The notes beneath the pieces are model-generated. The model was not told the origin of the DNA. It saw nothing but the letters and a program-made list of their open reading frames with translations, and searched no databases. Positions 6,557 to 24,782 of a DNA stretch of 64,000 nucleotides are shown here, piece after piece. Made by a program: the position numbers and the translations under genes. Origin of the DNA: a virus; the UHGV virus genome UHGV-0072281, one strand, 5' to 3'. Within the stretch, counting starts at the first letter, position 1. The number at the start of each line of letters is the position of its first letter.

Positions 6557-6955
6557 TCATCTTCCCGTACACGATTGCGAACAGCCACCATGACAGGTAC
6601 GACTACATGTACCTGTACATGTAGTCGTACATTGACCTATACATGTCCCCGTGCACCCACCAGAACATGAACTAGTACAACCTGAACATCCAGAACTACA
6701 ACCAGAAACACAGTTTGCTGAACATGAGGAACCACAACCTCCAGAAGCATTACCGGTACAACCACCAGAACAACTGGAGCACGTCCAGCTACAGCTACCA
6801 CCACAGTCGTAATGATTTTTAGGTTGCCCGCCAAATAGGTCGACATTATTCGTAGCCTTTCCACGAATATAGTTCTGTACTGCTCCAGTGTTTTTTAGCG
6901 CGGAAGAATCTATATTATCCAAGCGCGCTTTTAAAGAAGATAAACCAATCGCCAT
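6557..6955 (-). CDS. Cys-rich CXXX-repeat peptide B (putative radical SAM substrate)
   Basis: 132 aa; about 50-aa leader, then DCGGSCSWTCS and ~20 Cys at 4-residue periodicity; AGGTG SD. Confidence 0.7.
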   Translation of the reverse strand: MAIGLSSLKARLDNIDSSALKNTGAVQNYIRGKATNNVDLFGGQPKNHYDCGGSCSWTCSSCSGGCTGNASGGCGSSCSANCVSGCSSGCSGCTSSCSGGCTGTCIGQCTTTCTGTCSRTCHGGCSQSCTGR

Positions 6956-7017
6956 TTTAACACCTACTGGTTCAGTGCCAGCTAAGGCACATTATAATTC
7001 ATTCTCTGTAAAAAATA

Positions 7018-7929: not shown

Positions 7930-7953
7930 CAGTAATAGTACCTATCTGTTAAA

Positions 7954-8346
7954 TTAAGTCGGTCCTGAACAAGACGCACATGCGCCACTACATCCCGAGC
8001 TACAACGCCCGGAGCATCTACCACTGCATGTAGCGCTGCAACCAGTGCACCCACCAGAACACGTAGCGCTGCAACCAGTGCATTGATTACCGCAGGCGGA
8101 TGAACAGCTTCCAACACACACTGAGGTGCACGTACCAGAACAACTTGTACAACCATGCGTACAACCGTTCGAGCACGTCCAGCTACAGCTACCACCACAG
8201 TCTAATCGACCCGGTGTCCAGCCTGAAAAAGAATCTGCGGCATTGTGAGCTTTTGATGCAACCTGTGGATCGACGCGGGGTCCTGTCGCCATTTGATTCT
8301 CTACGTTGGTGATTCGATCGCGAACGTTTTTAACACTAATCGCCAT
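7954..8346 (-). CDS. Cys-rich CXXX-repeat peptide A (putative radical SAM substrate)
   Basis: 130 aa; leader MAISVKNVRDRI, junction DCGGSCSWTCS, then CxxxC-periodic core; AAGGA SD. Confidence 0.7.
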   Translation of the reverse strand: MAISVKNVRDRITNVENQMATGPRVDPQVASKAHNAADSFSGWTPGRLDCGGSCSWTCSNGCTHGCTSCSGTCTSVCVGSCSSACGNQCTGCSATCSGGCTGCSATCSGRCSGRCSSGCSGACASCSGPT

Positions 8347-8412: not shown

Positions 8413-9618
8413 TTATTTCGTACCCGCTTCCGCCTGTACGTCATCACGAGACGTCAAGTTAGCGTTAACGTGTACTGGGGCCTGAACCACACCACCGTAT
8501 TTCTTGTGGAGATAACCGGTATGTGGGTTATCTGCCGCAATGTGGTTTTGTAGGTTCTGGTTCGCCTGACTGATTGCGTTCGTGTTGTTAGCAACTTGCT
8601 TTTTGAGCGCATCCAGGTTCTGTTGTAACTGATCGATTTTCTGATCGGTTTCTTGACCCTGTTGCTCTAACGCGTCAACACGCTGAATAACCTGATTCAG
8701 TTTCGTGTTCAAATCGTTAATGCTCTTTTGCAGCTGTAACACTAACGAGTTCAGGTTCGCTAACGCTAAAGCCATTTTCTGGTAGTTTTGAGCAACCACG
8801 TTAAGTTGGTCGTTCCACGCTTCCAGAGAGTTGACAACAGCGTCAATACGCTTACCTAAAGCTTCATCTGCTTTCTTCAGTGCATTGATTTCCGTAATCG
8901 TTGCGTCGATAGCAGACTGGACGTCACGAATAAGCGCACGGATTTCAGTTTCTGTTAACCCGTTAACCTGATGAATATCAAGATGGTGAACGTTACCGGT
9001 TGCGTTAATGTGTGCATTTAAAGCGTCTAAGAAGTCATTTTTCAGGCTTTCTAAAATCGCTTTAATGTTCTCTAACTGTACCGCGTCACCAGAACTGATC
9101 GCATCTTTAATACCCGCCAATACGGTAATGATATATTCAAAACCGTAAATATCACCTACGTCTTTATACGTCGGTGCAGAAGGGAATGTATCTGGTACGT
9201 TACGCAGGTCTTTAAACGCAACCGTACGGTTATCGAGGTTTAATTCAGCAATCGCCTGTTCGATAGCCACGATGTTCGCAGACTGTGGGCCACCAACGAC
9301 CTGCGCAGATACCGTAATATCTGTTGGAATCGCTGTGTTAGTGACCACCACCGCCATAACAATCTCGCGGTTTTTAGTCAGCTTTTCATAAGTCGGGTGT
9401 GCAAAAATCAACTCATAATCGGTACCACGTTCGTAGGTTGCATCCGGTCGGTTAGCAACGCGTAAACGGAACGTGTCCGCAAAGAACGGGCCGTCAGGAA
9501 AAGCAAAAGCACGGTTTACTTTACCTGTACCTAACGTAATCTGACGCTCCACAGCGTTAGACGTTAGCGAGCCCGTTAAATCTAAAGGATATTGATAAAC
9601 AATGGAGGCCATGGCCAC
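8413..9618 (-). CDS. tail fibre protein (coiled-coil rich)
   Basis: 401 aa; N-terminal FPDGPFF...GTDYEL motif shared with the three giant genes upstream; long heptad-like Q/N/L-rich segment. Confidence 0.6.
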   Translation of the reverse strand: MAMASIVYQYPLDLTGSLTSNAVERQITLGTGKVNRAFAFPDGPFFADTFRLRVANRPDATYERGTDYELIFAHPTYEKLTKNREIVMAVVVTNTAIPTDITVSAQVVGGPQSANIVAIEQAIAELNLDNRTVAFKDLRNVPDTFPSAPTYKDVGDIYGFEYIITVLAGIKDAISSGDAVQLENIKAILESLKNDFLDALNAHINATGNVHHLDIHQVNGLTETEIRALIRDVQSAIDATITEINALKKADEALGKRIDAVVNSLEAWNDQLNVVAQNYQKMALALANLNSLVLQLQKSINDLNTKLNQVIQRVDALEQQGQETDQKIDQLQQNLDALKKQVANNTNAISQANQNLQNHIAADNPHTGYLHKKYGGVVQAPVHVNANLTSRDDVQAEAGTK

Positions 9619-9652
9619 TCTCCTTTATTCGAGACGTCCTTGTCCCGAGTCA

Positions 9653-12600
9653 TTAAGATGTAAACATAAGATTGAACTGGAGTTTGTCGATATCGCGAGT
9701 TTCTGCTGGATTCACGCCGTCGTACGCGGTCGCTACGTAAACCGTTAGCGTACCGTCAGCGTACGAGGATATTACCGGTGGGTTAGTTCCGGTCTGACCA
9801 TCTCGCACAATGAGTGCAGGCTCGCTGGGAAGATTATCAAACTGCCCTTTAACCGCTTTGTATACCAAACCGGACTGTGCAGATAACTCCGTGTCTGTGT
9901 ACACACAGAACGGTGTATCGATGTCAGCTTGTTTGATAGTGGTACCGGATTCGACATCAACCAACTGTACTGCTCCAAACTTCGTGCGATAACTTTCATA
10001 TTCGTTCTTCGGAATAACAAAAGTAACGTGAACACGAACTTCTTCAGCGGGCTTAAAGCCAGTATGTTCTTTTTCCAAATACTGGTTGGCTGATAGTGTC
10101 ACTTTTTGTTCGGCCATCGAACCACCTGCCTGATTTATTCCGTACCGGGCTTCAACAATACCGGTTGGTGCAGCAAGTCGCAATTTCAGAGTCCGATTCG
10201 CCGTTCCTGGATTACCTGGCACTTGAACGCGCAAACTCAATGCTAAGTAAGCATACGTTCCGGTAGTCGGTTTCGTATACGCACCTATCCATTTCATGTT
10301 CGCAGACGCTGCCTGCGTGTTCTCAGAAGCAATGGCTGTCGTAATGTTAGCAGCTACCGCTTTCTGCCAGAATTGGTCGGCGCAGTTCTCATACGCTACT
10401 CTGGCCACGCTCTTATAACCCGAATACGTTTCCTGAATTGGTAACTTAGGACGCGTCGTGATGCCAGACAATGAACCCCATTTTTGACCGTCAACATACC
10501 CTTCGCCCTTCGACGCAGCCGCCGTAGGTGCTTTAACGGGCTTGTTAACCAGGGTTAATAGAGGACCCGTCTTTCTGTCAAACGCTGCTGCTACATCGTG
10601 TTGGTCGATAATTGCTGCGTGGTCTTCCAGCTCTTTCACACGACCCAAGCGTTTTACTTTGTCGATACTGATATCAGTAATACGGCTGGAATCGGTGGTT
10701 ACTGTCCCGACGAACAGTCTCGTTGAAGTATCGGCTAACTGCTCCAAACCGATGCGGTATTGTGCGGTAGAATCCGACACCTCAGCGTGCACGTAGAACG
10801 TCTGGTTAGCGTGATTGGACGGGAACTCGCTGCTTAAATCCACAGACCACGTTGGGAGTGTGTAGCTGCTGCTACCGAAGTCTAATTTGACTTCTTCTGT
10901 CAAATACAGAATCCAACCTTCCGCTGTCTCCACACCAGCAATAATAACCGCCTGACCACCGGTTGAGAACGTCGTGTCGTTAACGAACTCTGCGGCTGTA
11001 TACGCGTTACCTGAACAGAAAACACGGTCAGCTTTAGAGAAAATCAACGCCATCTTGTCCCAATTACCGGCACCCATATAGCATCCAGATTCTGGGTTAT
11101 GCGCAGGAGCCATCTGACGTAACTGCGACTTACCAGGAACGCGAGACCAACCTGAACCTGGGTCGTAGGTATACTTCGCGGCGTAACCTAGTGCGTTTAA
11201 GTCCCCGATATTTCGGATAGTTAACGTATAAGGTAGCCAGATACCGAAGTTAGTTCCATCCGCAGAAGCGAAAATAGGCTGTCCGACGCGACGGGTCTTA
11301 TTACCAGCCTCCTCTCTTAACGACTGATAACTTAAACCGTAGTCTTTATCCAGGAACCAATCCACCAACTTAAAGTTAGCGGAGTTGAACCGTAAGTAAC
11401 CATTCTCTTTAGATGGACTCACCATGAAGTAATAGATGTCAAGAATTCGACGACCGTTACTTAAGGTTTTCATGCACGAAACTTGCAACAAGTCAAATTC
11501 GCACACGGTGTTGATACCCAACATCCAAAGAGCAAACAATGCATTACCGGTTTGATGGGCAGCACTAATACGTTCGTTCGCGTATCCGTTCGCTTGGCCA
11601 GAAGGTGCACCGTCAACGATCATCCGAATCATTTTCTGTCGATCGGCTTCTTCTAGCGTTAAGCGTTCGGAAGACAACGCGAAGTTACCGTAGATGTTAC
11701 GATACGGGAACGTTTCTGCTTTGGTCAAATACCAACCGTTTAACTGTCCGTGACGCTCCTCAGGAGTCATGCACGCAGCCATACAGCTAAGCTGCTCATA
11801 TAGCGTTGGATCGACTTCACGACGGTTGTTGTTCGGACCGTATCCGCTATAACCCGGAACATCGTAAGGTTTGTTCGGATCAACTTCTACTTCGATGGTG
11901 TAACGGTTACGTGGGTTAGACATCCACACTTTGTTCGAACCACCAATCCCAACAGGATGGGAAAGACCAATGGTATAAATAGAACCACGACCTTTATCCC
12001 AGGTAAACGTTCCTTCGCCTGAGGTATTGTTTGGGTTATCGTAACGCAGATAATCGAAAAATTCTTTGCCTTGTGTTCCTTTAATAGAAACGTTAGGCAT
12101 TTGGTCCGCGTCGTTAATCTGCCAGCAGGAAAGCATCATTCCTGTTCCATTAGGCTTAGCGTACGTTGCAAAACAACGATTGTTTGCTTGACCACCGCCC
12201 CACTTACGGCTGGTTTCTACAGTTGAACCATCCGCGAAAGAGAGTGTAGTAGCATCAGCCTTGATGGGAAAGCGTTCGCGGCCTTCTAACGTAACCTTGC
12301 CCGTCGACGTATCGATTGTAAAACTTGTTGCCCACTGACGAAAGTTAATTTGTGAGCTGTCAGCCGCTGCAAACCACACAGTAGGCATATGGTTCACACG
12401 AATCACGCCGTCGCGCACTGCACAAGCATGGTTACATTCTGGACCGTGAACAAAGTTGCAACCAATTGTCCATTTAGCCCGTGCTTCCGGCGTCAAATAC
12501 GTAAAGAACTGACCCGTTTGTGACTCTTCGGTTTTCTGGCCAATGCGTAGGCAGAGGTTATCTCCGAATTGTCCCATCTCCCCGTTTAGTGTTACGCGTT

Positions 12601-14836
12601 CAAACTCCAGCGTGGTGCTAGTAGACAAATCGTCCTTACGTAGACGCCAAGCTGCTACTGCGTAAGCAGAGTTATTTACCGTAGAGCGGAGAAGATAAAC
12701 GTAATCCTCAACCAACACAACATCATCGGCTTCTGGCCACGGATTCCAGGTTTGTTCCACAGTACCGCTGGGGTTGCCGTTACGGTACACGGGCATCGTA
12801 ACGCGACATACCACCGTGTGTTTAGTGTGATCCATCGAACCATTAAACAACACCAAATAACGGTTATTATCAGAACCCAGACAAATAATCGCTTCCTGAC
12901 CACCGATCAATATAGCTTTCAGGGTCACTCCAGGATATTTACTCATCCCGGCAGGGTGATATTTCACTGAGGTCTGCTGCGGATTTACAAACGCGTTTGA
13001 CGTGTTAATGTCAGCATAGCCGTAATAAATGGCTTCTGTACCCGGTACGCCGTTAGAACCGTTACGGAGCGAATAAACCTTACCCTGCTGATACCCAACA
13101 ACCCCTTTTTGATAAGACTGGTTTTTGGTATAACCCGAATAGTTACCTAGCGCTGGGATAGGTAAGAAGTTCTTGTTACCGAACTTCGCACCACCTACCG
13201 TCCACGCCGGTAAGATGGTATTCAGTTTATCAGAGACTTTCTTAATCTCTTTTGCGAACAGCCACCCTTGACGCGACGTGACAGCTTTATCGTTAGTAGT
13301 GTCAATCGCATCCCAGAGCTGCAAGATACCGTCAACCGATGCACTACCAATTGGAATGTTATCCAAGTCAGCAGTGGTGTGTGTATGCGTCTTCAAACTC
13401 TTGTTTTTCAACACGTTCGTTAACGCTTTCGTCACCGGCTTAGCACTTGGCGTGGTGTTATCCATCTTATCGGTACCGAAATCGGTTTTCGTTAAGGTTA
13501 ACACCATACTGTCGCCTACCTTAACAAACCCTTTACCGTTAACGGTATAGTCATCGTCAACGTACAGGTCCAAGCGGTCTTTTAATTCGGTTACGGCTTT
13601 CTGGGAGATAGCAGTACCTAACGCCGCAGACGTGGAGATATTCGTAATCGAGAACAACCCATAAACTGATTCGGTCGCTGTGGGAATATTCGCGTTTAAC
13701 GTAACCGGGTTAGTCTGTTTTGCGGTACCGTACGGTTTTACAGTGTCTGACGCTTTGAAATACGCGTTTGCTTCGAGCAACGTTACTGACGTCAGGTACA
13801 TGTTCACCATTTCTGGCGTAACCAGATACACGGAGTTATAAACCGGCGCTAATACATCCTGTTCTGACCCCGAGTGAACCCAAAGCGTATTCAGACCCGC
13901 ACTGAATTCAACCGCTAAACCTGATTCGTTGTTGTCCTGGTCTGCTTTAATCACCAACGGTTGTGGCGAGGTAATTAACCACTTATCACCGCGAATACTG
14001 ATGATGTGGCCACCTGACGTTTTAAACGTTAATTCAATACCGTTAGTAGTGCCCCATCGACCGTAAACAGTACCGAGGGCTTCACCCATTAACTGGTCAA
14101 CGTCTGATTGCTCAATACCCGCTGAACCCATCAGCGTAGCCAACTCGTCAATCGTCAACCCAAACGCTTTTGTAGCGTCAACAGCGCGGCCTAATACCGG
14201 GAGAGCAGCAATGTCGTCAGTGGTATAATGATGAGCGTTAGGATTCCGGTGGTGTTGGTATAACTCTTCGTCGAAAACCTTTTTACCGTTCTCGTAAATC
14301 AGGTTAGTAACTTCACTAAACGCAGCATCTAACTCTGTAGAACGCTTAATGATTTTCTTACGAATGTCTTCTAACGCCTTAACAACCTCATCTCTCAGAA
14401 TAGCTTCTTCTAAGTTAGCAGGCGGGTCGATTGGTTGAATAACCGGCGCATACGCCATTAGTTCAGACCAGTCCACGTTACGTGGGTCTTTCAGGTCAGT
14501 ACGAACTAAGAACTTCCCGATTTCAGATTGCGGTACACGATATTGACGTGCTACCCCTAAAATCTCATATTCGATTTCTGTTGCAGTAAGCAACATAAAC
14601 CCGCCGTAAATCTGATCTTGTTCAGCTTCTGCGAGTTCTTTAAAGTAATAGCCTAAATAGTAGTCCAACCCCTCAATCAGAGTACGACGTCCGTTAGGCG
14701 CGGTATCGTCGGCTACTGTGAGTTTTAATCCGATACGATAAAAAGGTCCTTCAGGTGGAATGACCACGTTAAATCGGTTAGGGTACGTTGCTGTGCTTAG
14801 CGTACCGTTAAACTGCGCCGCGTCTTCTCTCGGCAT
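9653..14836 (-). CDS. large tail fibre / tailspike-like structural protein
   Basis: 1727 aa uninterrupted ORF; N-terminal PEGPFY...GLDYYL motif; Gly/Ser/Thr/Asn-rich. Confidence 0.6.
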   Translation of the reverse strand: MPREDAAQFNGTLSTATYPNRFNVVIPPEGPFYRIGLKLTVADDTAPNGRRTLIEGLDYYLGYYFKELAEAEQDQIYGGFMLLTATEIEYEILGVARQYRVPQSEIGKFLVRTDLKDPRNVDWSELMAYAPVIQPIDPPANLEEAILRDEVVKALEDIRKKIIKRSTELDAAFSEVTNLIYENGKKVFDEELYQHHRNPNAHHYTTDDIAALPVLGRAVDATKAFGLTIDELATLMGSAGIEQSDVDQLMGEALGTVYGRWGTTNGIELTFKTSGGHIISIRGDKWLITSPQPLVIKADQDNNESGLAVEFSAGLNTLWVHSGSEQDVLAPVYNSVYLVTPEMVNMYLTSVTLLEANAYFKASDTVKPYGTAKQTNPVTLNANIPTATESVYGLFSITNISTSAALGTAISQKAVTELKDRLDLYVDDDYTVNGKGFVKVGDSMVLTLTKTDFGTDKMDNTTPSAKPVTKALTNVLKNKSLKTHTHTTADLDNIPIGSASVDGILQLWDAIDTTNDKAVTSRQGWLFAKEIKKVSDKLNTILPAWTVGGAKFGNKNFLPIPALGNYSGYTKNQSYQKGVVGYQQGKVYSLRNGSNGVPGTEAIYYGYADINTSNAFVNPQQTSVKYHPAGMSKYPGVTLKAILIGGQEAIICLGSDNNRYLVLFNGSMDHTKHTVVCRVTMPVYRNGNPSGTVEQTWNPWPEADDVVLVEDYVYLLRSTVNNSAYAVAAWRLRKDDLSTSTTLEFERVTLNGEMGQFGDNLCLRIGQKTEESQTGQFFTYLTPEARAKWTIGCNFVHGPECNHACAVRDGVIRVNHMPTVWFAAADSSQINFRQWATSFTIDTSTGKVTLEGRERFPIKADATTLSFADGSTVETSRKWGGGQANNRCFATYAKPNGTGMMLSCWQINDADQMPNVSIKGTQGKEFFDYLRYDNPNNTSGEGTFTWDKGRGSIYTIGLSHPVGIGGSNKVWMSNPRNRYTIEVEVDPNKPYDVPGYSGYGPNNNRREVDPTLYEQLSCMAACMTPEERHGQLNGWYLTKAETFPYRNIYGNFALSSERLTLEEADRQKMIRMIVDGAPSGQANGYANERISAAHQTGNALFALWMLGINTVCEFDLLQVSCMKTLSNGRRILDIYYFMVSPSKENGYLRFNSANFKLVDWFLDKDYGLSYQSLREEAGNKTRRVGQPIFASADGTNFGIWLPYTLTIRNIGDLNALGYAAKYTYDPGSGWSRVPGKSQLRQMAPAHNPESGCYMGAGNWDKMALIFSKADRVFCSGNAYTAAEFVNDTTFSTGGQAVIIAGVETAEGWILYLTEEVKLDFGSSSYTLPTWSVDLSSEFPSNHANQTFYVHAEVSDSTAQYRIGLEQLADTSTRLFVGTVTTDSSRITDISIDKVKRLGRVKELEDHAAIIDQHDVAAAFDRKTGPLLTLVNKPVKAPTAAASKGEGYVDGQKWGSLSGITTRPKLPIQETYSGYKSVARVAYENCADQFWQKAVAANITTAIASENTQAASANMKWIGAYTKPTTGTYAYLALSLRVQVPGNPGTANRTLKLRLAAPTGIVEARYGINQAGGSMAEQKVTLSANQYLEKEHTGFKPAEEVRVHVTFVIPKNEYESYRTKFGAVQLVDVESGTTIKQADIDTPFCVYTDTELSAQSGLVYKAVKGQFDNLPSEPALIVRDGQTGTNPPVISSYADGTLTVYVATAYDGVNPAETRDIDKLQFNLMFTS

Positions 14837-14857
14837 CGTAAAGACTCCTACTTTTTA

Positions 14858-14894
14858 AATAAAATGGATACCCCTCCCCATTACAGGGAGGGGT
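14858..14894 (-). terminator. hairpin between the 1394-aa and 1727-aa fibre genes
   Basis: Minus strand: cccctccc-tgtaat-ggggaggg followed at ~8 nt by ttttattt. Confidence 0.45.
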
Positions 14895-14931
14895 TACCTA
14901 CGGACACACAACTGCCCGCAGGCAGCCTGTC

Positions 14932-17900
14932 CTAAGTACGATCCCCTAACTGCTTCCCGTTAAGTTCTCGTTTCAGTACAGAAAGTATCCATTTCCACGC
15001 TTTACTCGTGATATGGTACGGATTGCGTTTCTCCATTAAGAACTGCTTTTCACCGCTACGCAGTTCAAAGCTCTGCGCATTAAGGTAGTCCTGACGATAG
15101 ATTTTCTCATCAAAAACTTCCAATGAACAGGTAAAGTTAAGTTCGTACCCTTCAGGATTATTACCCGGCGGGTCTAAGACAATATAGATGTCCTGGCCTA
15201 CACGTAAATCCGTTGGAGTGATGGTAATCGCTTTACCCACATCGGCGTTAGTCGACAGAGCAAACTCCGCACTGTCCGTAGACGCTAAGAATGGGTCTTT
15301 CCCTGCGTCGCCAATAATCACTTTACCTGGCCAGTTACTTTTTATCGTTCCCGTCACTTTTGCAATTCGATATTGCTGTTTATCAACACCTTGTGCAAAA
15401 CGGAGAATGAGTTTGTGACGATAACGACTTGCAGCAACCTTAGTCGTACTCCACACATTGTTCCAGGAAGTGTGCAGTTCATTGTTCTTCGCCATCAACG
15501 CACCACGAGACAGTTTACGGTCAAAGAACTGCGCAGGTAACTGCCCATCGTGAGAAACCGCAACACTTCCCTGACCAGTTGGCAAGGCAATGCTCTCCGT
15601 GGCACGGTATTTTTGACTAATCTCATAAGTCGCAGGGTCAATCACAGACTGACTATAATCAGCGTCTTTGTTATCAGCCAAATACCCAACGGATGAATCC
15701 AGATACGACTCAAACAACGAACGTAAGTAATGATACTTATCAATGTCGATATTGTTCGTAACCGGATCAATCAGTGCGTGGCTAATCGTTACTCGGCATT
15801 TCGCGCTCAGTTCTTTAAACGATAATCCTATTCCGTCACCGGTGAAATAATCCACTAAGTCGAACGGGAATTGAATTTCCAACTGACGTTGTTTAACTGT
15901 CGTCGTCCCAAACTGCGAGAACGACAACGCTAAACGTAACACACGCGTACTTACGTTATAACGGTAACGAATCATCCCACGAGGTGCATGGTTTGCAGAG
16001 ATTTTATCTCGGGCGGCGCCCCAGCCAATCAAATCGAGAATCGCAGCATTCGTTTCTTCACCGTTGAACAACACATCCTTAAACGTTGCATTCACCGCTG
16101 TTTCCCCAGACTCTTCCATTACCAACGGAATGTCAGTAACGGCAGAATCTGAACGGGAACCAATCCCCAGCTTACACGCTTTGGCAGTTAGGTCAATGCG
16201 CAGATAGCGACGTTTAACGCTACTCCCTTGCGTTGACGAGCATAGAACCAAATCCGGCGCAGCAGCAAGGGCTTGCGTCCCACCAACATCGTCAACATCG
16301 AATGCAAACGAGCCTTCGAAAGTCGGTGCGTTGTTTTCTTTCGGGTTAAACGGTGTAAACCAACAATACGGCGTAGCACCTTCAGGTATCACAACGTATT
16401 GAAGACTGGATTTCACGTTTTGGTTGTGTGCGTAAGTATAAAGACCGCGACTGACAAGATGGAAAACATCACCTGTACCGGCTGTTAACGCTTTCCTAAA
16501 GATACACGCTCTCGGTTCGGCAATAGCACGGTTTAATAACGGCAAACGTGGGTTATCCGTTAGCGTCCAGTCCACAGAACTGAGTCCGTGCGCTTTACGA
16601 GTGTCGATGTGTTCACTAACCTCGGCACTTTTCCCGAAATCGAACGTGGTTTCGAACCCAACTGTTTTATTCGCGTAATTCTCACCAGCAACAATATCAA
16701 CGTAACCGATATAACCACGTTCAGGATCAACTGCGATGCTCTGAATAGGTTCAGCACGCGAATATAGAGAGCCTGTGAGCATGTTAACGTACAGATAGTG
16801 ACGAATCCCTACGTGGGTTGTAACAAACTCCTGGAGAAGCTCTACGCGCGTTTCAGGGCCACTGAAGTAAACAGGGTAATCACCGTCGTAAACTTCAAAT
16901 TGCACAGCTGCTGATTTTGCAGTGTCACTGCATTCTGCTTTAACAGCGATTGTGTAATTTTCAACATCTAACGACGTTGTGTAGTTCATTAACAACGGAG
17001 ATTCACCGGTAGCGGCCACAACACCATTTACATAAATGGTTATCCTTCCACCGCCAGCGGCGTAAACAAACAGCCTATTCTGATAAGCTTTGACCCGTAT
17101 TTTAGCCAACACTGATACAACGGACTGTTCACCCATCTGTGTAGCGCTTTTACCTACCGGAACTGACTGAAACCCCATTGTTGGAGGATCAACAATTCCA
17201 TCCCAACTAATCCCAGTACCTCTACTAACTTTCCCCGTAGGCCAAGTCAGCTCAAGCTGGTTGTTCGGTGAGAACCAGTTAAACATCGGGGTGGTTTGTA
17301 AGTCAATCGCACCAGTAACGACACCGTCGGCCTTTCCTCCATTCAGCAAATAGAAGTATTTCAAATCCTGAACGGAGATTGTCGTACCCTGGCTATTAAA
17401 ACGCCAGTCTGCGCCTTTTACAGCAGCGAAATCAGTTACTGTTCCTTCTTTCGCGTTTGCTATCGCAGCGGCCACCACATCTAAACGTGCTGAAAGCTCT
17501 TTTAAGATGTTCGGTACCACTGCTCGGTTTTCAACTAAACCGTTCTGGTTAGTTGCGTAACGGCCAATACCGTAAATAGACTGCGAGGCTTTATAAATGC
17601 CTAACTCTGACCAGCCGTGATGGTGGCCGACATCTGCTAAACCGCTAACCGATGTATTCAATGCGGTAGACAACGGTTTGTCAAGGTCTGCGGTGTTGTC
17701 CGCTTGCCCTAATCCCAGATCGGCTTTCGTGATTGTCCTGGAACCGTCGTCCATCGCTTTACCGTTAATCATGGTCGTTTTAGTCACGTACCCTGATAAG
17801 TCGGTTGAATACGGCGTTAATGACGCAGGGGTTGCAGCAACCCCAACCGTTTCTGTGCCTTTACCGGTTTTAAGTTTAACGACACCTTTTTCAGTGGTTG

Positions 17901-19116
17901 ACGCTTTCGTCGGGTCGATAGCCCCCACGATAGGATCGGCTCGAGAACCTTTACCAGTGAAACTGATCCCATTACGGCCTTCGATATACACTTTGGAGTC
18001 ATCAGGGTCGCTACCGCCACCAGAACCCGCATCAGGGTCTTGTTGGTATTCCATAAGTGCGGTGGTGGTCAGTAACGGGTTACCGTTCAGGGTGAGTTTG
18101 TTCATCCCTAAAACATCGCCCGTTGACTCGATGCGTAACATGTTTTTACCCGCACGCCAGTTAATGTAACGTCCCGCGCTAGTGCCTTCCAAATGACCTA
18201 CCGCCAATACCACAGAACCGTTGGATTTTAACGTAAAGCCGTCATTCGCAAAAATGATTTCTGACTCACCGTTTTTCGAACGGAATTGTGCGCGGTTTCC
18301 TGACACCGTACAGTTAAACACACCCCGTACTTCCGAAGAAATCCAGTGGGAGATATACGTGTCAATAACCGACTGTGGTAAACGAAACGCTTTCAGCTCA
18401 TCCGTCAACGCTTTCAACTTTAACCCGTACGCCATAAAGGTGTCAGGGGTTTTCAGGTTAACGGGATGTGCATTAATTTGTGCACTTGTGGTTTCGTGTG
18501 GGTTCGTCGCGGCAATATGTGCTGGGTAGTTAAACGCTTCGATTTCTTTACCCAACGCGGTCACTAACGCTTTAACTTCAGCTAATTTATCTTTAATTAG
18601 CTGGTTAGCGTCATCGGTTTTCAGCTCGATATCGTGAATCGCCGACGCTAAGTATTTTTTGTTCAGCAAATCCGCCCAGGACGTTGCCGCAGGCGTAGCT
18701 GGGTATAGCGACGGTCTACCGTCTAACAACAACCAGTCTGCACTGACTGGGTTATTCAAATATTTCACCAACTCGTCGAGCATCTCAACGAACGGGTCGT
18801 AGAACGTACCGCCGAGCATTTGTCCTTCAAAGGTTACGATGCCTTTGATGGATGGGTTGATAAGGTGTACCCCACAATACACGTTGGCTGCTACCGAGTC
18901 ATCCAGTTCCGTCAGCTGATATTGTAGTTCGTAGTCCACCCCACGACTCAGTGGGGTGGTTGAACCCGGTTGTCTGACGACTAAGTCTTCAAAGAACGGG
19001 CGATGGTCTAAAATCACCACCCGGTCGTTGTTGTTTTCTGACCCGATGATACGCTCCTCTAAGAAGTGATTCTCGGTTTTCGTCCCCCGAGGATCGTAAG
19101 GATACGCTTTCATCAA
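14932..19116 (-). CDS. large tail fibre / tailspike-like structural protein
   Basis: 1394 aa ORF; N-terminal HRPFF...GVDYEL motif. Confidence 0.6.
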   Translation of the reverse strand: MMKAYPYDPRGTKTENHFLEERIIGSENNNDRVVILDHRPFFEDLVVRQPGSTTPLSRGVDYELQYQLTELDDSVAANVYCGVHLINPSIKGIVTFEGQMLGGTFYDPFVEMLDELVKYLNNPVSADWLLLDGRPSLYPATPAATSWADLLNKKYLASAIHDIELKTDDANQLIKDKLAEVKALVTALGKEIEAFNYPAHIAATNPHETTSAQINAHPVNLKTPDTFMAYGLKLKALTDELKAFRLPQSVIDTYISHWISSEVRGVFNCTVSGNRAQFRSKNGESEIIFANDGFTLKSNGSVVLAVGHLEGTSAGRYINWRAGKNMLRIESTGDVLGMNKLTLNGNPLLTTTALMEYQQDPDAGSGGGSDPDDSKVYIEGRNGISFTGKGSRADPIVGAIDPTKASTTEKGVVKLKTGKGTETVGVAATPASLTPYSTDLSGYVTKTTMINGKAMDDGSRTITKADLGLGQADNTADLDKPLSTALNTSVSGLADVGHHHGWSELGIYKASQSIYGIGRYATNQNGLVENRAVVPNILKELSARLDVVAAAIANAKEGTVTDFAAVKGADWRFNSQGTTISVQDLKYFYLLNGGKADGVVTGAIDLQTTPMFNWFSPNNQLELTWPTGKVSRGTGISWDGIVDPPTMGFQSVPVGKSATQMGEQSVVSVLAKIRVKAYQNRLFVYAAGGGRITIYVNGVVAATGESPLLMNYTTSLDVENYTIAVKAECSDTAKSAAVQFEVYDGDYPVYFSGPETRVELLQEFVTTHVGIRHYLYVNMLTGSLYSRAEPIQSIAVDPERGYIGYVDIVAGENYANKTVGFETTFDFGKSAEVSEHIDTRKAHGLSSVDWTLTDNPRLPLLNRAIAEPRACIFRKALTAGTGDVFHLVSRGLYTYAHNQNVKSSLQYVVIPEGATPYCWFTPFNPKENNAPTFEGSFAFDVDDVGGTQALAAAPDLVLCSSTQGSSVKRRYLRIDLTAKACKLGIGSRSDSAVTDIPLVMEESGETAVNATFKDVLFNGEETNAAILDLIGWGAARDKISANHAPRGMIRYRYNVSTRVLRLALSFSQFGTTTVKQRQLEIQFPFDLVDYFTGDGIGLSFKELSAKCRVTISHALIDPVTNNIDIDKYHYLRSLFESYLDSSVGYLADNKDADYSQSVIDPATYEISQKYRATESIALPTGQGSVAVSHDGQLPAQFFDRKLSRGALMAKNNELHTSWNNVWSTTKVAASRYRHKLILRFAQGVDKQQYRIAKVTGTIKSNWPGKVIIGDAGKDPFLASTDSAEFALSTNADVGKAITITPTDLRVGQDIYIVLDPPGNNPEGYELNFTCSLEVFDEKIYRQDYLNAQSFELRSGEKQFLMEKRNPYHITSKAWKWILSVLKRELNGKQLGDRT

Positions 19117-19126
19117 AAAATTCTCC

Positions 19127-22100
19127 TTAATCGCGAATGATTACCGCCTGCACTAAATTGTTGGTGTCGATAAACGACATTACGCGCTCCTTGTTAAGAT
19201 AAGGAGGTATCGGTAACGCAGCGTAATCCGCCAGGTTGTTATTAAACTCGGTTGCCACTAGCGCATTAAGCGTTTCAGGGTCTGAGCTTGTCCCGGCCAA
19301 TTCCATAACACGTACACGATTTAACGAGGAATAGTTGCTGATATAATCCAACAGCGTACCGTAGAGTTTATTCCCGGTTATGCTGTCCGCCGTAGAGCGG
19401 ATATTGGCACGCACTTCGTCCTCATAAAGTCCCCCTAATCCGTAGTAAATAGGGGTATACGGATCGTTAACGATAGGCGCGAGGTTGAACCCGGTTAAAC
19501 GGTCGGTCAGCGAGATTTTCTGCGTAGTACCACCTACCGCCGTACAGCTTACGTATTTATCTGCGGCAGATAAATACACCACAATAGTGTAAACAGTACC
19601 TGCTAAGGTCAGCGTTGCGTTAAACGTTAATTCGTTATTCGCATCACGCGTATGGCTAAATGACACATCGGGTTGTAACGTACTCCACGGTGCAGGTGTA
19701 ACACGTTTCGTTGGCGTGAAACCTAACACCACAGATTTCCCGTTACCGAAGTTTAAACCAAACCCGGCGTAACAATATTCACCATTACTGTCAGTTAAAC
19801 GATAGCCGCGAGTGATAAGTAACGACAACCGCATAAACTCGCCATCGGTGTTTTTCCAACAACCTAAAATGGTTTCTAACACCGTGCCGGTTTTTGCGTT
19901 GCTTTCGGTTTCCCAACTGACTCGCATCCCCGCATTGCTAAATAGGGGGAACAGGTTGTGGATAAATCCATGAACGTTATCACTTACCCCTTTCGCGTCA
20001 AACATCCACTTCGCCGTAAGCTGATCGTATTTCACACCGTCGAGCGCTTTATAACCGTCTCCAACCACATAACGCCAGTCTGCTTCACCACGCACAACCG
20101 CTTGGAGTCCAGAAGCCCAGCAGGGCGCACCTACTGTTAAATTGCTTAACCCCAACACCGCGCGCGAGGCATAACGTTGAATGTGTGCGTTATCGTTAGC
20201 GACGTGGTCTTTCAGCTCACGGAAATCGCCTAACCGCGTCACGTTACGCAACTCCACTACGTCCACTTCGGAAAGATCATTAACAACGAGCCTTCCCACA
20301 CGCGTCATGGTATCCGTCTCAGCTTGATTATAGCTGTCGTGAATAATGTACTTCGCTTTGTTATCGACAATGTCAACAAAAATCCCTGCGTAAACTTCCT
20401 TATTCAGATTCGGGAAACGTTCGGTGACGTTAACCGACATCAACGGTACGTCGTACGTTTCACCACCAATGAAATACGTGGAAGCAGGAAGTGTCACCAG
20501 GATATTGTCTTTAACCGTAACGTCAATTAAGTCGTTACCAGACTTACCAAAACGAATAATGTCAATGCGAGCGCCTGAGTCAACACCACCGACAGTGTTC
20601 TCCAAATCTTCAATCTGGGAAGTCTGCGCCATCACCACACTACTATCGAGTGCTAAAGTGTCATCATCCACATCCAGACCGAATTTAATCAGACCCCGTT
20701 TCGTGGTGTCTGCGTTAGCAACACCGAATACGGAAGACGGGTGTTGGTGAACCTTCGGTGAGTATTTGTCCAGCTCGGTCTGCTGTGCAACAGAAATCGG
20801 TAAGTCAACGTCCGGGGTATTCGCAACGTTACCTAAACCAAAGGTAATTTTGTCGATAGTAACCGAACTGGTAAGCTGCATGTCGTTGATGTACGACTTG
20901 GCGGCAACTAACTTACCGGTAAACTCTGCGTCCAGTTTTTCAATTAACGCGGGTGTCGCTGCAAGGTTTTCAGCCGTACCGAATTCGTCCGTTAACTGCC
21001 AGCAGGCTAAGGTAGTAACGTCATTGGCAACCGGAAGGATAAACGTTACGACAAAGGGCGATGCTTTAATCCCGCTGCCAGTAAGTTCTACGGTAGACGT
21101 AGACGCACCGTAGAACAGACCTGTACCGCCTGCGGTATTACCCGGCAAATACGGCCCGACTGTAGTGGGGTCTAAGAGCTTCTTACCACGCCACAGTAAT
21201 CCACGGTCATCAGGATATAGCACAAGCTGGTTATCGCCCGCCTGTAACGTTACCGGGTTGTTACCCACGTTAACGTCAGTAGAACCTTGACCGATGAACT
21301 TAATGGATTTCGGATCAACGACAAACTGGGCACCTAAACGTGTCTCGTCAACAACATCAGGTGCTTTCTTAATGGTAACCGTGTTACCTTTGTTTTGCGA
21401 ACTAATGGTGACAGCATCAGCAACGTTGTTAATCCACGTTTTAAAATGATATTGATTTTCCAACGCTTCTAGCGCAGAATCCATGTTATCAAAATTAATT
21501 CTGGCACTGTAAGTTTTACCGTTTACCGTAACGACAGCATCGAACACGTTCCCCGTGCGCTTCAACTGGAAACGTAATGAGAAATCGCTGTTAGGTATTG
21601 CCGGATCAGGAGCTTGAGAAATATACCTTACCTGCGGAACTGTACCAACAGTATTAAGGCTTAGCGAAACTTCAATAGAGATAGTATCGCCCCAGATTCC
21701 GGCTTTTATCTCGACAAACTTGCCAGCGATTGTGCCCGGGTTCTCGTAAAACCGCATAATCGCGGAACCGACCGCCTCATTACCCGACGCAGTTTTTATA
21801 CCAGTGACAATAAAGTCAATATCTTGCAGGTTAGCGGGTACCGCATTAAAAGAAGCACTAAATCCATTCTTCGTTCCTGTGTAACGAAGCGCGCCGTGAT
21901 ACCTGTGACCACTACTAACATAGTTTTCGCTAAAATAAGGGTTCACGTATTTAGACATCGAAACCGGATCAACTTCTGTCGTGAACGAAGTAAAACCGGG
22001 CAGCGTTCCAATGGTTCCGTCGGCCGTTTTCGTAGTTGACGTGCGCAGTAGTTTCTTTTGCGCAATCAATGTTTCTTGCGTTGGATACTTAGCATTAACA

Positions 22101-23452
22101 TAATCTGTTAACTGCGGCTTCGTTTTTCCGTAAGCTAACGCTGTATCCGTCGCAATACCATTCAACTCTAACGCACGGATCGCCCCCCACGTGTCGCTGT
22201 GCGGGTTGTCCTTACGTGTAACGTGTTCGTGTGCGGGTGCGTTACGATACAACTGCTCAACTAACTGATGGTACTTAACGATTAACTGATAAACGTCATT
22301 ACTTACGTCAGCTTCTGGCGAACCAGGTAACGCAAGGAATTGAGCGTAATCGTTTTCAGCCGCCCACCAGTTTAAGTTAACGTTGGTTTTGTATTTCAGC
22401 CACTTCGCAACGTCTGTTTTGCTGTAACCTGCTGAGAATTCGTCTGGCGGTGTGTCAACGTTAAACGTATAGTCCATGGACTGTTTGTTAGTCGTCACCT
22501 CGATAACGTATACACCGTTACCCGGTTGACGGACAACGCTAAACGTTAACTCGCCTTTTAATTCATCGTCGGTCAAACCGTTGATTAACGTATAATCGTA
22601 ATCGGTTGAACCACTGCCTAACGCAACCGTCAGTCGTAGGCCAATTTTACGTTGTTTTAATTGGAGACGAAGGATACTTGCGCCACCGTTCGCGTAGCAC
22701 AACATCCAATCGATTTGTTCATTCGGGTTAATACTCCCCATATTCGGAAAAATAGCCGGAATACGGTATTTCATCGACAGGGAATATTCATTTAACGTGG
22801 TGGTTTTGTACGTAACGGAGAAACGACGTTTGGCGGTGTTGTAGGTATACCCACCTTTGTTATCGTACGTTGCGTACTGTTCAGACGTGATAACCGTACC
22901 ATTAGCACGATGTTCGATATCTAACGTGTTGCGCGCAATCGGGTCTAACCGATTCACCACGTTGCCTAACGAATCACCTAAGCCTGCAATGGCCTGCATT
23001 AATTCCAGTTCACCTTTCCAGTTTTCCCAGTCGAACTGAATGTCAACCGGTGGAAAGTAAACATCACCAATAACGGTATCCCATTGACACGCAGACGGGT
23101 ATTTATCTTTATTGAGTTCGCGTTCTGCGGTAATCTGTTCTTGGGTCGCTTCACCACAACCTACGGCGTGGTAATCTACCGTGAAATTCGATTTGTATTT
23201 GTCGTTAACAATCCAAATCATCCCGTGCACGAGATAGGCTGTGCGCAACATACCGGTCTCGTACGGGTGTGTAATAACGTAATCGTCGCCTAAGGTCAGT
23301 ATTTTGCCGCCGCTCTTGACCACCAGGGATGTGGTGAAAAAAGGGGCGTGGGCAGGTACCAACATTCGGTACTTCGTACCAATGACGGCGACCGCTTCAC
23401 CGGTTATTTTATTCCCCGGTTCTTTGAAGTGTGGGTCTAGGACGACAGCCAT
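19127..23452 (-). CDS. large tail fibre / tailspike-like structural protein
   Basis: 1441 aa ORF; N-terminal HAPFF...GDDYVI motif; first gene of the minus-strand block. Confidence 0.6.
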   Translation of the reverse strand: MAVVLDPHFKEPGNKITGEAVAVIGTKYRMLVPAHAPFFTTSLVVKSGGKILTLGDDYVITHPYETGMLRTAYLVHGMIWIVNDKYKSNFTVDYHAVGCGEATQEQITAERELNKDKYPSACQWDTVIGDVYFPPVDIQFDWENWKGELELMQAIAGLGDSLGNVVNRLDPIARNTLDIEHRANGTVITSEQYATYDNKGGYTYNTAKRRFSVTYKTTTLNEYSLSMKYRIPAIFPNMGSINPNEQIDWMLCYANGGASILRLQLKQRKIGLRLTVALGSGSTDYDYTLINGLTDDELKGELTFSVVRQPGNGVYVIEVTTNKQSMDYTFNVDTPPDEFSAGYSKTDVAKWLKYKTNVNLNWWAAENDYAQFLALPGSPEADVSNDVYQLIVKYHQLVEQLYRNAPAHEHVTRKDNPHSDTWGAIRALELNGIATDTALAYGKTKPQLTDYVNAKYPTQETLIAQKKLLRTSTTKTADGTIGTLPGFTSFTTEVDPVSMSKYVNPYFSENYVSSGHRYHGALRYTGTKNGFSASFNAVPANLQDIDFIVTGIKTASGNEAVGSAIMRFYENPGTIAGKFVEIKAGIWGDTISIEVSLSLNTVGTVPQVRYISQAPDPAIPNSDFSLRFQLKRTGNVFDAVVTVNGKTYSARINFDNMDSALEALENQYHFKTWINNVADAVTISSQNKGNTVTIKKAPDVVDETRLGAQFVVDPKSIKFIGQGSTDVNVGNNPVTLQAGDNQLVLYPDDRGLLWRGKKLLDPTTVGPYLPGNTAGGTGLFYGASTSTVELTGSGIKASPFVVTFILPVANDVTTLACWQLTDEFGTAENLAATPALIEKLDAEFTGKLVAAKSYINDMQLTSSVTIDKITFGLGNVANTPDVDLPISVAQQTELDKYSPKVHQHPSSVFGVANADTTKRGLIKFGLDVDDDTLALDSSVVMAQTSQIEDLENTVGGVDSGARIDIIRFGKSGNDLIDVTVKDNILVTLPASTYFIGGETYDVPLMSVNVTERFPNLNKEVYAGIFVDIVDNKAKYIIHDSYNQAETDTMTRVGRLVVNDLSEVDVVELRNVTRLGDFRELKDHVANDNAHIQRYASRAVLGLSNLTVGAPCWASGLQAVVRGEADWRYVVGDGYKALDGVKYDQLTAKWMFDAKGVSDNVHGFIHNLFPLFSNAGMRVSWETESNAKTGTVLETILGCWKNTDGEFMRLSLLITRGYRLTDSNGEYCYAGFGLNFGNGKSVVLGFTPTKRVTPAPWSTLQPDVSFSHTRDANNELTFNATLTLAGTVYTIVVYLSAADKYVSCTAVGGTTQKISLTDRLTGFNLAPIVNDPYTPIYYGLGGLYEDEVRANIRSTADSITGNKLYGTLLDYISNYSSLNRVRVMELAGTSSDPETLNALVATEFNNNLADYAALPIPPYLNKERVMSFIDTNNLVQAVIIRD

Positions 23453-23519: not shown

Positions 23520-24782
23520 GTGACTACTGCTTATCAAGTACGGCCTGACAGCGCTTTTGGCTTCTCTCGAGAGACCCGTACCTGGGGAGCCATCGACGTC
23601 ACGCAACCCTTAGAAACCTTGTGTTCTGATTACCATATTTTCGAAGTCGGTCTGAGTGCGCTTGGTAAAGACTATACGTTAATTAGCCAATATCACCTCG
23701 CTGACTTACAAAACCGTACCGATACTTTACAAGACTGGCTGAATGAAAAAGCCGGTATCGTTATCTCTGAGTTGAATGACGGTTTACCGACGTTAGAGTT
23801 TGATTGGGCACACTACCAATCGATTAATGCCGATGTTCCGGTAGAAACCTACCTGTGTCCTCCCGGTTATCACTACAGTCAAGATTTCAGTATAGACGAT
23901 GCTGACGACGTTGTGATAGTGTGTGAAGATAAATGGAAAGACAAATACCGTAACGGGGTGTTGTACAACATCAACGGACAGTGGGTACCGCATCAATCCG
24001 ATACTGTTGGTGTACGTTTACCAGGTGCGGGTAAGATAGTACGTCGTGCAGGGACACCGGATATCGGGTGCATGGTCTTTAGTAAATTGGGGAATGTTAA
24101 AACGTACCCCATTGCTAACTTGACCTTAAACAAGCTCGACACCACCCGTGACTATTATTCCACGTTAATGATTTCTTTACCGGAATCTATTACGGGTAAA
24201 ACCGTGGGGTTTGTTATCGGGGGACTGATACACTGGTTGCCTGTTACTGGGTACTTCTCCGACAAAGCCATTATGGTGTCGCTACCGAACTTTGACGTTG
24301 CGCGTACTGTGTTAGAAACGCGTCGTTATTACGACTGGGATAGCATAGGCGTTGGCGATTTGTCATCACCGACCAGTGTGCAGCGTATCCGTAACCCAGA
24401 AACGTTAAAGGCGCTTTTAACCCACGAGTCGTCGTTTATCTTTACGGTGGATAATCCGTACCTGGAAGAAGAAGTTGTGGGGGTTTCTCACAACGCTATC
24501 TGGGGACGTTTATACCTTAAAGATCCTAATGACCCTGACGGTGAGAAACAACTGGGGTATCTGTTAAACCGCTTCGGTAAAACTGTTGCTTATTGGCCGA
24601 CGTGGGAAGAAGGGGAATGGGTATTTAACACCACGGAATTCGACAGTCAAAACTACGTGTTCCGTGAGGCCCGTTGGTATAACCAGAATAAAATTAACGA
24701 TGCACAGGCAATCGTAGGGCCTTTCGGTCCCTGGGAAAAAGTCTATTTGGAAATGCATCGTTTCCGTGCAAGAAAAAAATAA
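23520..24782 (+). CDS. hypothetical protein (possibly structural)
   Basis: ORF 23304..24782; start moved to in-frame GTG 23520 after GAGGAAAAG SD because the longer form overlaps the divergent gene; start uncertain. Confidence 0.5.
   Translation: MTTAYQVRPDSAFGFSRETRTWGAIDVTQPLETLCSDYHIFEVGLSALGKDYTLISQYHLADLQNRTDTLQDWLNEKAGIVISELNDGLPTLEFDWAHYQSINADVPVETYLCPPGYHYSQDFSIDDADDVVIVCEDKWKDKYRNGVLYNINGQWVPHQSDTVGVRLPGAGKIVRRAGTPDIGCMVFSKLGNVKTYPIANLTLNKLDTTRDYYSTLMISLPESITGKTVGFVIGGLIHWLPVTGYFSDKAIMVSLPNFDVARTVLETRRYYDWDSIGVGDLSSPTSVQRIRNPETLKALLTHESSFIFTVDNPYLEEEVVGVSHNAIWGRLYLKDPNDPDGEKQLGYLLNRFGKTVAYWPTWEEGEWVFNTTEFDSQNYVFREARWYNQNKINDAQAIVGPFGPWEKVYLEMHRFRARKK

Follow-up and report, generated by a model that had tools for sequence, protein, structure and literature searches.

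Four tandem genes headed by a gp131-like N-terminal domain probably encode the baseplate-attached tail fibres of a phiKZ-related jumbo phage

A four-gene array beside a gp130 homologue

The window analysed here, a 64,000-nucleotide stretch of viral DNA (UHGV-0072281), comes from an SPN3US-like (Seoul-like) jumbo phage related to phiKZ, and no relative above 80% nucleotide identity was found for it in the phage collection searched. Four consecutive minus-strand genes, called A to D here, run up to a divergent homologue of the phiKZ gp130 gene. The features are listed below, with layouts in amino acids.

23520 to 24782, plus strand: gp130 homologue, 420 aa, GTG start; adjoins the array and is divergent to it
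19127 to 23452, minus strand: gene A, 1441 aa, orthologue of SPN3US gp170; N-domain 1 to ~135, insertion ~100-335, helix and H..NPH motif 385-430, inserted beta-sandwich ~535-700, fibre shaft ~700-965, module in common with C 971-1090, ConA/galectin-like beta-sandwich ~1174-1354
23048 to 23452, minus strand: N-domain of A, HAPFF...GDDYVI; phiKZ-only HMM E 6.3e-12, blastp to phiKZ gp131 7.7e-8
14932 to 19113, minus strand: gene B, 1393 aa, orthologue of SPN3US gp169; proximal part 1 to ~556 collinear with C, distal ~840 aa unique
18709 to 19113, minus strand: N-domain of B, HRPFF...GVDYEL; phiKZ-only HMM E 3.4e-12, blastp to gp131 3.2e-9
14870 to 14894, minus strand: terminator-like element in the 95-nt gap between B and C, an 11-bp G+C-rich hairpin followed by a T-rich tail
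9653 to 14836, minus strand: gene C, 1727 aa, orthologue of SPN3US gp168; proximal part 1 to ~543 collinear with B, beta-propeller-like domain ~579-920, further beta-sandwich domains, module in common with A 1293-1413
14432 to 14836, minus strand: N-domain of C, PEGPFY...GLDYYL; phiKZ-only HMM E 4.7e-3, most divergent of the four
8413 to 9612, minus strand: gene D, 399 aa, orthologue of SPN3US gp167; N-domain, helix, H..N.H motif, long coiled coil ~225-370, terminal NPH motif
9208 to 9612, minus strand: N-domain of D, DGPFF...GTDYEL; phiKZ-only HMM E 7.2e-12, blastp to phiKZ gp135 4.5e-13

The first-pass annotation had listed the same four minus-strand reading frames, and all were found in place together with the N-terminal motif quoted for each. 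Its lengths stand for A and C (1441 and 1727 aa), while those of B and D change from 1394 to 1393 aa and from 401 to 399 aa after correction of two start codons. B most likely starts at the ATG at 19113, one codon inside the TTG (19116) of the open reading frame list, which gives the 1393 aa of its orthologues. The start of D is the ATG at 9612, with AAGGAG 7 nt ahead of it; gene calls on 8 public contigs include precisely this 399-aa protein. A scan for sigma-70 promoters gave no enrichment (17 sites versus 21.7 expected), a result that is uninformative because phages of this kind use their own RNA polymerases.

The gp130 homologue matches phiKZ gp130 (blastp 1e-12) and PHROG 3337, and is 78% identical to SPN3US gp171 over 420/420 aa. 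In phiKZ, gp130 lies at the outer periphery of the baseplate with the fibre base docked beneath it (PMC13250141), and its SPN3US counterpart gp171 belongs to the tail and is essential (PMC5105663). SPN3US, Asesino, Phobos and Vibrio phage pVa-21 all carry this four-gene array, and a tandem array beside a divergent gp130 homologue is found in these phages and in Goslar.

The small genes downstream of D showed no similarity to the "tail fibre assembly" genes of pVa-21. Just downstream of the array, radical-SAM enzymes and Cys-rich CXXX-repeat peptides are encoded in a conserved cassette, which is mis-annotated in relatives and may be a fresher subject than the fibres.

All four proteins begin with a homologous domain

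The motifs were first read as one related N-terminal segment heading all four proteins, and they prove to be the core of a homologous domain of ~135 aa. An HMM built solely from the N-termini of phiKZ gp131/133/134/135 and run on the 408 six-frame ORFs of the window matched the N-termini of A, B, C and D and no others, the next ORF having an E-value of 0.1. All four proteins also match PHROG 2163 (A 4-100, E 6.5e-16; B 4-216, 7.6e-30; C 15-578, 2.8e-44; D 2-400, 2.5e-103). Direct blastp among the four did not link the N-terminus of A to B, C or D, so that profiles were needed; profile-profile comparison connected every pair over the N-domain, most strongly B with C (99.9%), B with D (99.2%) and A with D (90%), followed by C with D (87%), A with B (70%) and A with C (61%). 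C is placed in the family mainly by its strong matches to B and to PHROG 2163, its match to the phiKZ-only profile being weak.

The alignment of B, C and D with gp131/133/134/135 extends through a putative helix and an H..N(P/V/A)H motif, and in A an insertion shifts the helix and NPH to aa 385-430. This N-domain also stands at the head of ~3000 protein clusters, 149-2583 aa in length, whose distal domains are of various fibre types, among them Peptidase_S74, Collar, Phage_fiber_2 and PKD. Against PDB sequences, the N-domain profile hit only the generic "DW..P..FPP..H" fibre motif, in the tail-collar fibre gp4 (9d93).

A, B and C share a fibre shaft

The four proteins had been thought to diverge completely after the motif, which is wrong: profile-profile comparison and blastp revealed long homologous stretches among them. 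The idea of a shared anchor with variable distal parts holds, and its restriction to a short motif gives way to a homologous proximal shaft. By profile-profile comparison, B 32-556 runs collinearly to C 24-543 (~550 aa), A 385-964 matches B 171-561, and A 335-929 matches C 138-512. The shaft of A is the same as that of B and C, broken up by insertions. Further homology joins B 2-259 to D 6-261 (~260 aa) and A 971-1090 to C 1293-1413, a common module of 120 aa. The A/B/C shaft carries the usual tail-fibre motifs A/T-x4-G, D-x-P-x-S and HxH.

The structure model of A has a mean pLDDT of 57, with the shaft (aa 700-975) and several linkers unmodelled as a monomer, and our interpretation of it is therefore limited to three confident beta-domains. 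Since the shaft of A is nearly invariant among orthologues, this behaviour is what would be expected of an interdigitated oligomeric fibre.

Distal domains of A and C are predicted to be lectin-like or propeller folds

The distal parts of C (528-1727) and A (535-1441) were modelled as monomers. The model of C contains a generic beta-propeller and beta-sandwiches, and manual parsing of its DSSP assignment gave 28 strands in seven groups of four within model residues 52-393; the crystal structure of gp131 was absent from its top 60 structure matches. The model of A has ConA/galectin-like beta-sandwiches and no propeller. Pfam returned nothing for the four proteins but coiled-coil noise in D, single-sequence and profile searches of PDB sequences gave no relatives, and sequence profiles matched nothing in the distal part of B, whose first-listed homologues are all 93-96% identical.

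The three giant proteins had been considered large enough to carry depolymerase-type domains. No such domain was found in the modelled parts (C 528-1727 and A 535-1441) or by Pfam and PDB sequence searches, and structure prediction gave no right-handed beta-helix in these regions. The predicted folds fit a lectin or an enzyme alike, because propellers and sandwiches occur both in lectins and in glycosidases and lyases. On the strength of these models, the distal domains of A and C probably bind surface carbohydrate and possibly cleave it, the folds pointing to carbohydrate recognition rather than to classical beta-helix depolymerases.

Comparison of close relatives shows almost no change in the proximal parts of A and B, while their distal parts vary. 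A is the most variable protein, followed by B, and C is the least variable. Population variation in B is concentrated at aa 551-750, 951-1050 and 1251-1350; it is spread over these three broad regions, and no DGR-like hypervariable hotspot was seen in B.

A model for the fibre set

Together, our results argue strongly that the four genes encode a set of tail fibres attached to the baseplate of an SPN3US/Seoul-like jumbo phage related to phiKZ, known here from its genes alone. Membership of an adsorption apparatus, proposed from the motifs, is borne out by the phiKZ-type docking domain and by the SPN3US orthologues, which are tail proteins. In phiKZ, a "gp131-like N-terminal domain" docks the fibres under gp130, the fibre base comprising six such domains and a six-helix bundle, with 12 fibres per baseplate (PMC13250141). 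By homology, we infer a hexameric assembly, its stoichiometry and a receptor-binding role for the window phage. Each protein begins with its ~135-aa gp131-like N-domain, which is followed by a putative alpha-helix and the motif H-x(4-5)-NPH; six N-domains and six helices would build a hexameric fibre base, which would dock at the baseplate's outer rim, under the gp130 homologue (23520-24782). Distal to this base, A, B and C share a homologous fibre shaft and end in different all-beta domains, by model a propeller and sandwiches in C and ConA/galectin-like sandwiches in A. D is the short coiled-coil member of the set.

We give almost no credence to the idea that the N-termini resemble each other by chance or through low complexity and that the proteins are unrelated or not part of the virion. 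The missing blastp link from the N-terminus of A is the point in favour of this idea, which is refuted by independent profiles (PHROG 2163 and the phiKZ-only HMM join all four, with no other ORF of the window matching), by profile-profile comparison and by proteomics that identifies the orthologues as tail proteins. It also appears quite improbable that the giant proteins are enzymatic tailspikes, namely capsule or O-antigen depolymerases. Their size alone is suggestive, but lectins, kelch, SPRY and galectins match the same folds equally well, sequence identity is 5-14%, no catalytic family is indicated by Pfam, PHROG or PDB profiles, and the models of A and C lack the right-handed beta-helix.

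How the chains are combined is a separate question. In SPN3US, gp167, gp168 and gp169 yielded 6.7, 2.8 and 3.8 PSM/kDa, respectively, a semi-quantitative measure (PMC10052503 Table S2). The resulting ratio of gp167 to gp168/169, ~2-2.4, is compatible with 3:1:1:1, again semi-quantitatively. One option, which we consider plausible though not the favoured one, is four independent homotrimeric fibres or spikes, with a site for each paralogue or an X3+D3 pair at each site, resembling the CBA120 or G7C branched tailspike sets and unlike a mixed heteromer. Homotrimers typically have features such as the HxH motifs and the coiled coil of D, the distal domains are distinct in each of the large proteins, and X3+D3 sites would also give the 3:1:1:1 that the gp167 excess fits. 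However, the phiKZ density has six N-domains per attachment site and is read as a paralogue mix (PMC13250141), every phiKZ paralogue is individually required, and the A/B/C shaft, being collinear and having its landmark motifs conserved, would be compatible with a heterotrimer as well. Such a heterotrimer is a more speculative and rather unlikely arrangement, in which the SPN3US-type base would be the mirror image of that of phiKZ: one chain each of A, B and C would form a shaft with three distal heads, and three D N-domains would complete the hexamer. It would be feasible because the proximal ~400-550 aa are collinear, with HxH and other landmark motifs in register. If true, the fibre would have multi-receptor binding built in, with three specificities, and this might partly account for how widely these phages occur among Salmonella serovars and E. 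coli isolates.

The baseplate-attached fibre set is a real finding but largely a known one, as the arrangement has been described for phiKZ and SPN3US; publications on the paralogues and on the N-terminal domain that docks them date from 2016-2023 for SPN3US and from 2012 and 2026 for phiKZ. Our analysis adds the short gp167-type protein to the family, a residue-level module map showing where the conserved proximal ~550 aa give way to variable distal domains, and, from the models, a first putative assignment of folds to the distal regions of A and C (beta-propeller and lectin-like sandwiches). Hundreds of isolates of Salmonella and E. coli carry persisting Seoul-like jumbo phages, so a map of the variable fibre parts should be useful for host-range prediction and engineering.

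Comparison with known systems

Conserved N-terminal attachment modules also hold the receptor-binding proteins TSP1-4 of CBA120 and gp63.1/gp66 of G7C, and the T4 short tail fibre gp12 is a baseplate-attached fibre that fixes the particle to the cell. The likeness to these is a functional analogy only, with no sequence relationship detected, and the CBA120 and G7C spikes carry beta-helix depolymerase domains, whereas none was found in the models from the window.

The likeness to phiKZ is closer. In both phages the N-domains are homologous and lead into a helix and an H..NPH motif, four paralogues with this N-domain are arrayed in tandem beside a divergent gp130 gene, and one member has a beta-propeller as distal domain (gp131 in phiKZ and, by model, C here). 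D is nearest to gp135 in its N-domain, and A and B are nearest to gp131. The distal parts are unrelated in sequence, and the sets differ in composition: phiKZ has one 771-aa protein with a seven-bladed propeller, three ~460-aa paralogues and the 110-aa gp132, whereas the window encodes three giants (1393-1727 aa) and one short coiled-coil member. No transposon insertions occur in any of phiKZ gp131-135. Immuno-gold labelling and cryo-EM place gp131 at the baseplate periphery (PMC5105663, PMC13250141), and the phiKZ hetero-hexamer is a "candidate" model from AlphaFold models fitted at 4.4-4.6 Å (PMC13250141).

SPN3US gp170/169/168/167 are direct orthologues of A/B/C/D in the same order and orientation, with identities of 67%/40% for A, 47% for B, 49% for C and 77% for D; A is ~200 aa longer than gp170. 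In SPN3US, gp167-170 are present in virions and missing from tailless particles (PMC10052503 Table S2; PMC5694885), and mass spectrometry of wild-type versus tailless particles classed gp167/168/169/170/171 all as "Tail" (PMC10052503). gp168 is designated "expected" essential. The published "Paralog family C", similar to gp131, consists of gp168-170 and leaves gp167 outside (PMC5694885, PMC5105663), whereas our comparison gives gp167 and its orthologue D the same N-domain as the other three.

A four-gene fibre array headed by a common N-terminal domain

Four neighbouring tail-fibre paralogue genes, termed A, B, C and D, form a head-to-tail array on the minus strand at 8413-23452 according to the ORF list of the window, next to a divergent homologue of the phiKZ baseplate gene gp130:
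23520-24782, divergent from A-D: gp130 homologue, GTG start, 420 aa (78% identity to SPN3US gp171; phiKZ gp130 match, E 1e-12)
19127-23452, minus: A, 1441 aa
14932-19116 as listed, start moved to ATG 19113, minus: B, 1393 aa
9653-14836, minus: C, 1727 aa
8413-9618 as listed, start moved to ATG 9612, minus: D, 399 aa

The first-pass annotation reported a related segment at the four N-termini. Its motifs are present in the translations of A-D, and profile searches confirm the homology. PHROG 2163 matches all four N-termini (E 6.5e-16 to 2.5e-103). An HMM built only from phiKZ gp131, gp133, gp134 and gp135 (their N-terminal ~135 residues), with the window's own sequences excluded, was searched against every six-frame ORF of the window with at least 50 aa, 408 in total. 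A-D were the sole matches, each at its N-terminus (B 3.4e-12, A 6.3e-12, D 7.2e-12 and C 4.7e-3; next ORF 0.1). By blastp, phiKZ gp131 matches B (3e-9), A (8e-8), D (5e-5) and C (6e-5), and gp135 matches D (4e-13), so that the nearest phiKZ N-terminal domain is that of gp135 for D and that of gp131 for A and B. Twelve aligned sequences of this ~135-aa gp131-like domain (N-domain) have an invariant F in 'PFF' and an invariant Y in 'DY', and past DY they stay in register across a 'P..FPP' segment, then a helical stretch, then an H-x(4-5)-NPH motif.

When the N-domains of A-D were made into a profile and searched against 1.84 billion representative proteins, 2979 clusters were retrieved at E <= 1e-3 and 1154 at E <= 1e-10, with the match nearly always at residues ~1-145 of proteins 149-2583 aa long. 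Among 56 N-domain proteins scanned with Pfam, Peptidase_S74 was found in eight, and PKD, Collar, Phage_fiber_2, YadA-head or coiled coils in others; none of the 56 had a Pfam family covering the N-domain itself. Since varied distal domains follow one N-domain, the proposed logic of an anchor with a variable distal part is valid family-wide.

The listed starts of D and B probably lie one or two codons upstream of the true ones. In D, AAGGAG precedes ATG 9612 by 7 nt and the listed GTG by only 1 nt, and the 399-aa version is residue-for-residue identical on eight public contigs. In B, ATG 19113 is codon 2, and the orthologues, 1391-1393 aa in length, open with MK.YPYDP. The 95-nt B/C gap contains a strong G+C-rich hairpin of 11 bp that has a T-rich tail (14870-14894, minus); the remaining junctions are tight (A/B 10 nt, C/D about 40 nt). 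The hairpin may be a terminator or attenuator dividing the array into two transcription units. The same-strand block closes with a 224-aa protein (1996-2670, minus) containing a DUF4376 domain (E 1.4e-6), whose SPN3US orthologue carries the annotation 'DUF4376 domain-containing protein'. As proteins of the tail-fibre-assembly type commonly have this domain, the 224-aa protein may be a fibre chaperone candidate.

Shared shaft modules and distal domains

The proteins had also been described as diverging completely after the N-terminus. Profile-profile comparison of the orthologue families refutes this, with matches extending far beyond the N-domain.

Module map of the four fibre proteins
B 32-556 and C 24-543: probability 99.9%
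A 385-964 and B 171-561: probability 99.3%
B 2-259 and D 6-261: probability 99.2%
A 335-929 and C 138-512: probability 97.8%
A 971-1090 and C 1293-1413: probability 97.1% (hhalign)

Judged from these alignments, A has the common proximal architecture, into which two segments are inserted (roughly aa 100-335 and aa 455-720). Classical tail-fibre motifs occur along the shared shaft (TEKGVVKL / TKRGLIKF; D-x-(K/L)-P-x-S; HHH / HTH / HQH), and sequence is unique only distal to B ~560, C ~545 and A ~965. A ~120-aa module occurs only in A (971-1090, window 20183-20542) and C (1293-1413, window 10598-10960); PHROG 3573 and 26864 detect it too, and its conservation across orthologues is strong (GVETAEGW..YLTEE ... 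RLG.(V/F)(K/R)EL.DH). It is followed by a low-confidence linker with His motifs and looks like a mid-fibre knob.

Pfam detected no family in A, B or C, and PDB sequence and profile searches gave no match for the distal parts. The AF2 model of C 528-1727, built with 18 sequences, is all-beta with a mean pLDDT of 76.8. By hand count of its DSSP string, C 579-920 (model residues 52-393) has 28 strands that fall into seven sets of four, a predicted pattern that would fit a seven-bladed propeller of the gp131 kind. The model of A 535-1441 is poor overall (pLDDT 57) with three confident domains. The A 700-975 shaft is nearly invariant, yet unmodelled, as expected when an oligomeric fibre is modelled as a monomer. 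As regards the suggested depolymerase-type domains, a right-handed beta-helix is absent from both models. The modelled folds occur in enzymes as well as lectins. Because these folds are common to both, carbohydrate recognition would be the parsimonious reading of the modelled distal parts of A and C.

Variation and occurrence of close relatives

Close relatives number in the hundreds; their sources are metagenomes and isolate assemblies, the latter of Salmonella and in some cases of E. coli. Residues 1-550 of B are almost invariant, and variation is concentrated at 551-750, 951-1050 and 1251-1350. The distal 907 aa of A form an identity continuum from 93% down to 73%, and C falls into few clusters, one with 803 members. 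Such proximal constancy and distal variation are expected of fibres whose proximal parts are fixed in the baseplate and whose distal parts are turned towards the host.

Near-identical copies of A and B (85-96%) are found on ~220-230-kb contigs in isolate assemblies, many of Salmonella enterica, some of E. coli and one of Shigella, as well as in metagenomes. Persistent virulent Seoul-like jumbo phages have been described in bacterial isolates (bioRxiv 10.1101/2024.12.31.630880), which accounts for such contigs in isolate assemblies; the window phage is probably one of them.

A Cys-rich peptide and radical-SAM cassette downstream of D

Directly downstream of D lies a RiPP-like cassette (3181-8346, minus):
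7954-8346, minus: Cys-rich peptide 1, 130 aa
7929-8198, minus: 89-aa GTG ORF in another frame, overlapping the Cys-rich region
7018-7929, minus: radical-SAM gene, ~305 aa
6557-6955, minus: Cys-rich peptide 2, 132 aa
5433-6320, minus: further protein, 295 aa
4487-5410, minus: radical-SAM gene, ~305 aa
3181-4503, minus: radical-SAM gene, 440 aa

The two Cys-rich proteins are paralogues (43% mutual identity) interleaved with the three radical-SAM genes, a ~305-aa radical-SAM protein coming after each. In both, a leader-like N-terminal part of ~50 aa precedes CxxxC repeats made up of C/G/S/T only (~80 aa), and they have the junction motif DCGG(S/T)CSW(T/S)CS in common. The best match of the 440-aa protein is TIGR04115 'radical SAM peptide maturase, CXXX-repeat target family' (E 1.3e-34, below the curated cut-off), and one Cys-rich peptide weakly matches CXXX-repeat target models. 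SPN3US, Asesino and Phobos keep the pair directly after gene D, unannotated or read in another frame and therefore invisible to virion proteomics; SPN3US has one radical-SAM gene fewer. On public and metagenome contigs, gene callers give an 89-aa other-frame ORF and a 69-aa ORF in place of the 130/132-aa ORFs, and thus the Cys-rich genes are systematically missing from protein databases. A full-text literature search that paired 'jumbo phage' with the terms radical SAM, Cys-rich, RiPP and CXXX returned no paper containing 'jumbo phage'.

Proposed fibre-base model and relation to known phages

The SPN3US orthologues of A, B, C, D and the gp130 homologue are gp170, gp169, gp168, gp167 and gp171, respectively. 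SPN3US gp168-170 constitute 'Paralog family C', low-abundance virion proteins that resemble phiKZ gp131, are missing in a tailless mutant and have been called 'baseplate/tail fiber candidates' (PMC5694885; PMC5105663; PMC10052503). gp167 was seen in virions and left outside this family (PMC5694885), and gp171 is an essential tail protein (PMC5105663). All five were scored 'Tail' in a 2023 data set, with 880 PSMs for gp167 in wild type vs 5 in tailless heads (PMC10052503). A 2026 phiKZ atlas describes a 'gp131-like N-terminal domain' common to gp131, 133, 134 and 135; six such domains and a six-helix bundle form the fibre-attachment complex, with a proposed make-up of gp131x3 + gp133 + gp134 + gp135, which docks beneath gp130 at twelve fibres per baseplate (PMC13250141). 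phiKZ gp131-135 are all without transposon insertions (PMC12676376).

With SPN3US orthologues scored 'Tail' and phiKZ homologues forming the fibre base, the original interpretation as an adsorption apparatus is right in outline. A phiKZ-type fibre base is the best-supported model, in which the N-domains and helices of six chains would sit under the gp130 homologue and the shafts and heads would be directed to the cell surface. Semi-quantitative PSM/kDa values computed from the SPN3US data (gp167 6.7 vs gp168 2.8 and gp169 3.8; PMC10052503) fit a D:A:B:C ratio of roughly 3:1:1:1. D3 + A·B·C heteromers and X3 + D3 sites would both give this ratio, which therefore does not discriminate between them.

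At the nucleotide level, megablast found only patchy matches of 70-77% to Erwinia phage Asesino/phiEaH2 and Salmonella jumbo phages. The gene order is that of SPN3US, where a divergent 420-aa gene is followed by 1237-, 1376-, 1727- and 400-aa genes. A shares 67% identity with gp170 in the first 494 aa and 40% in the remainder; B, C and D share 47%, 49% and 77% with gp169, gp168 and gp167. Asesino, Phobos and Vibrio phage pVa-21 have the same four-gene array, and Goslar a related one. A-D are thus an orthologue set of an already described family. Our analysis newly places the gp167-type protein in that family, maps the modules of the four proteins and gives the first fold assignments for distal parts.
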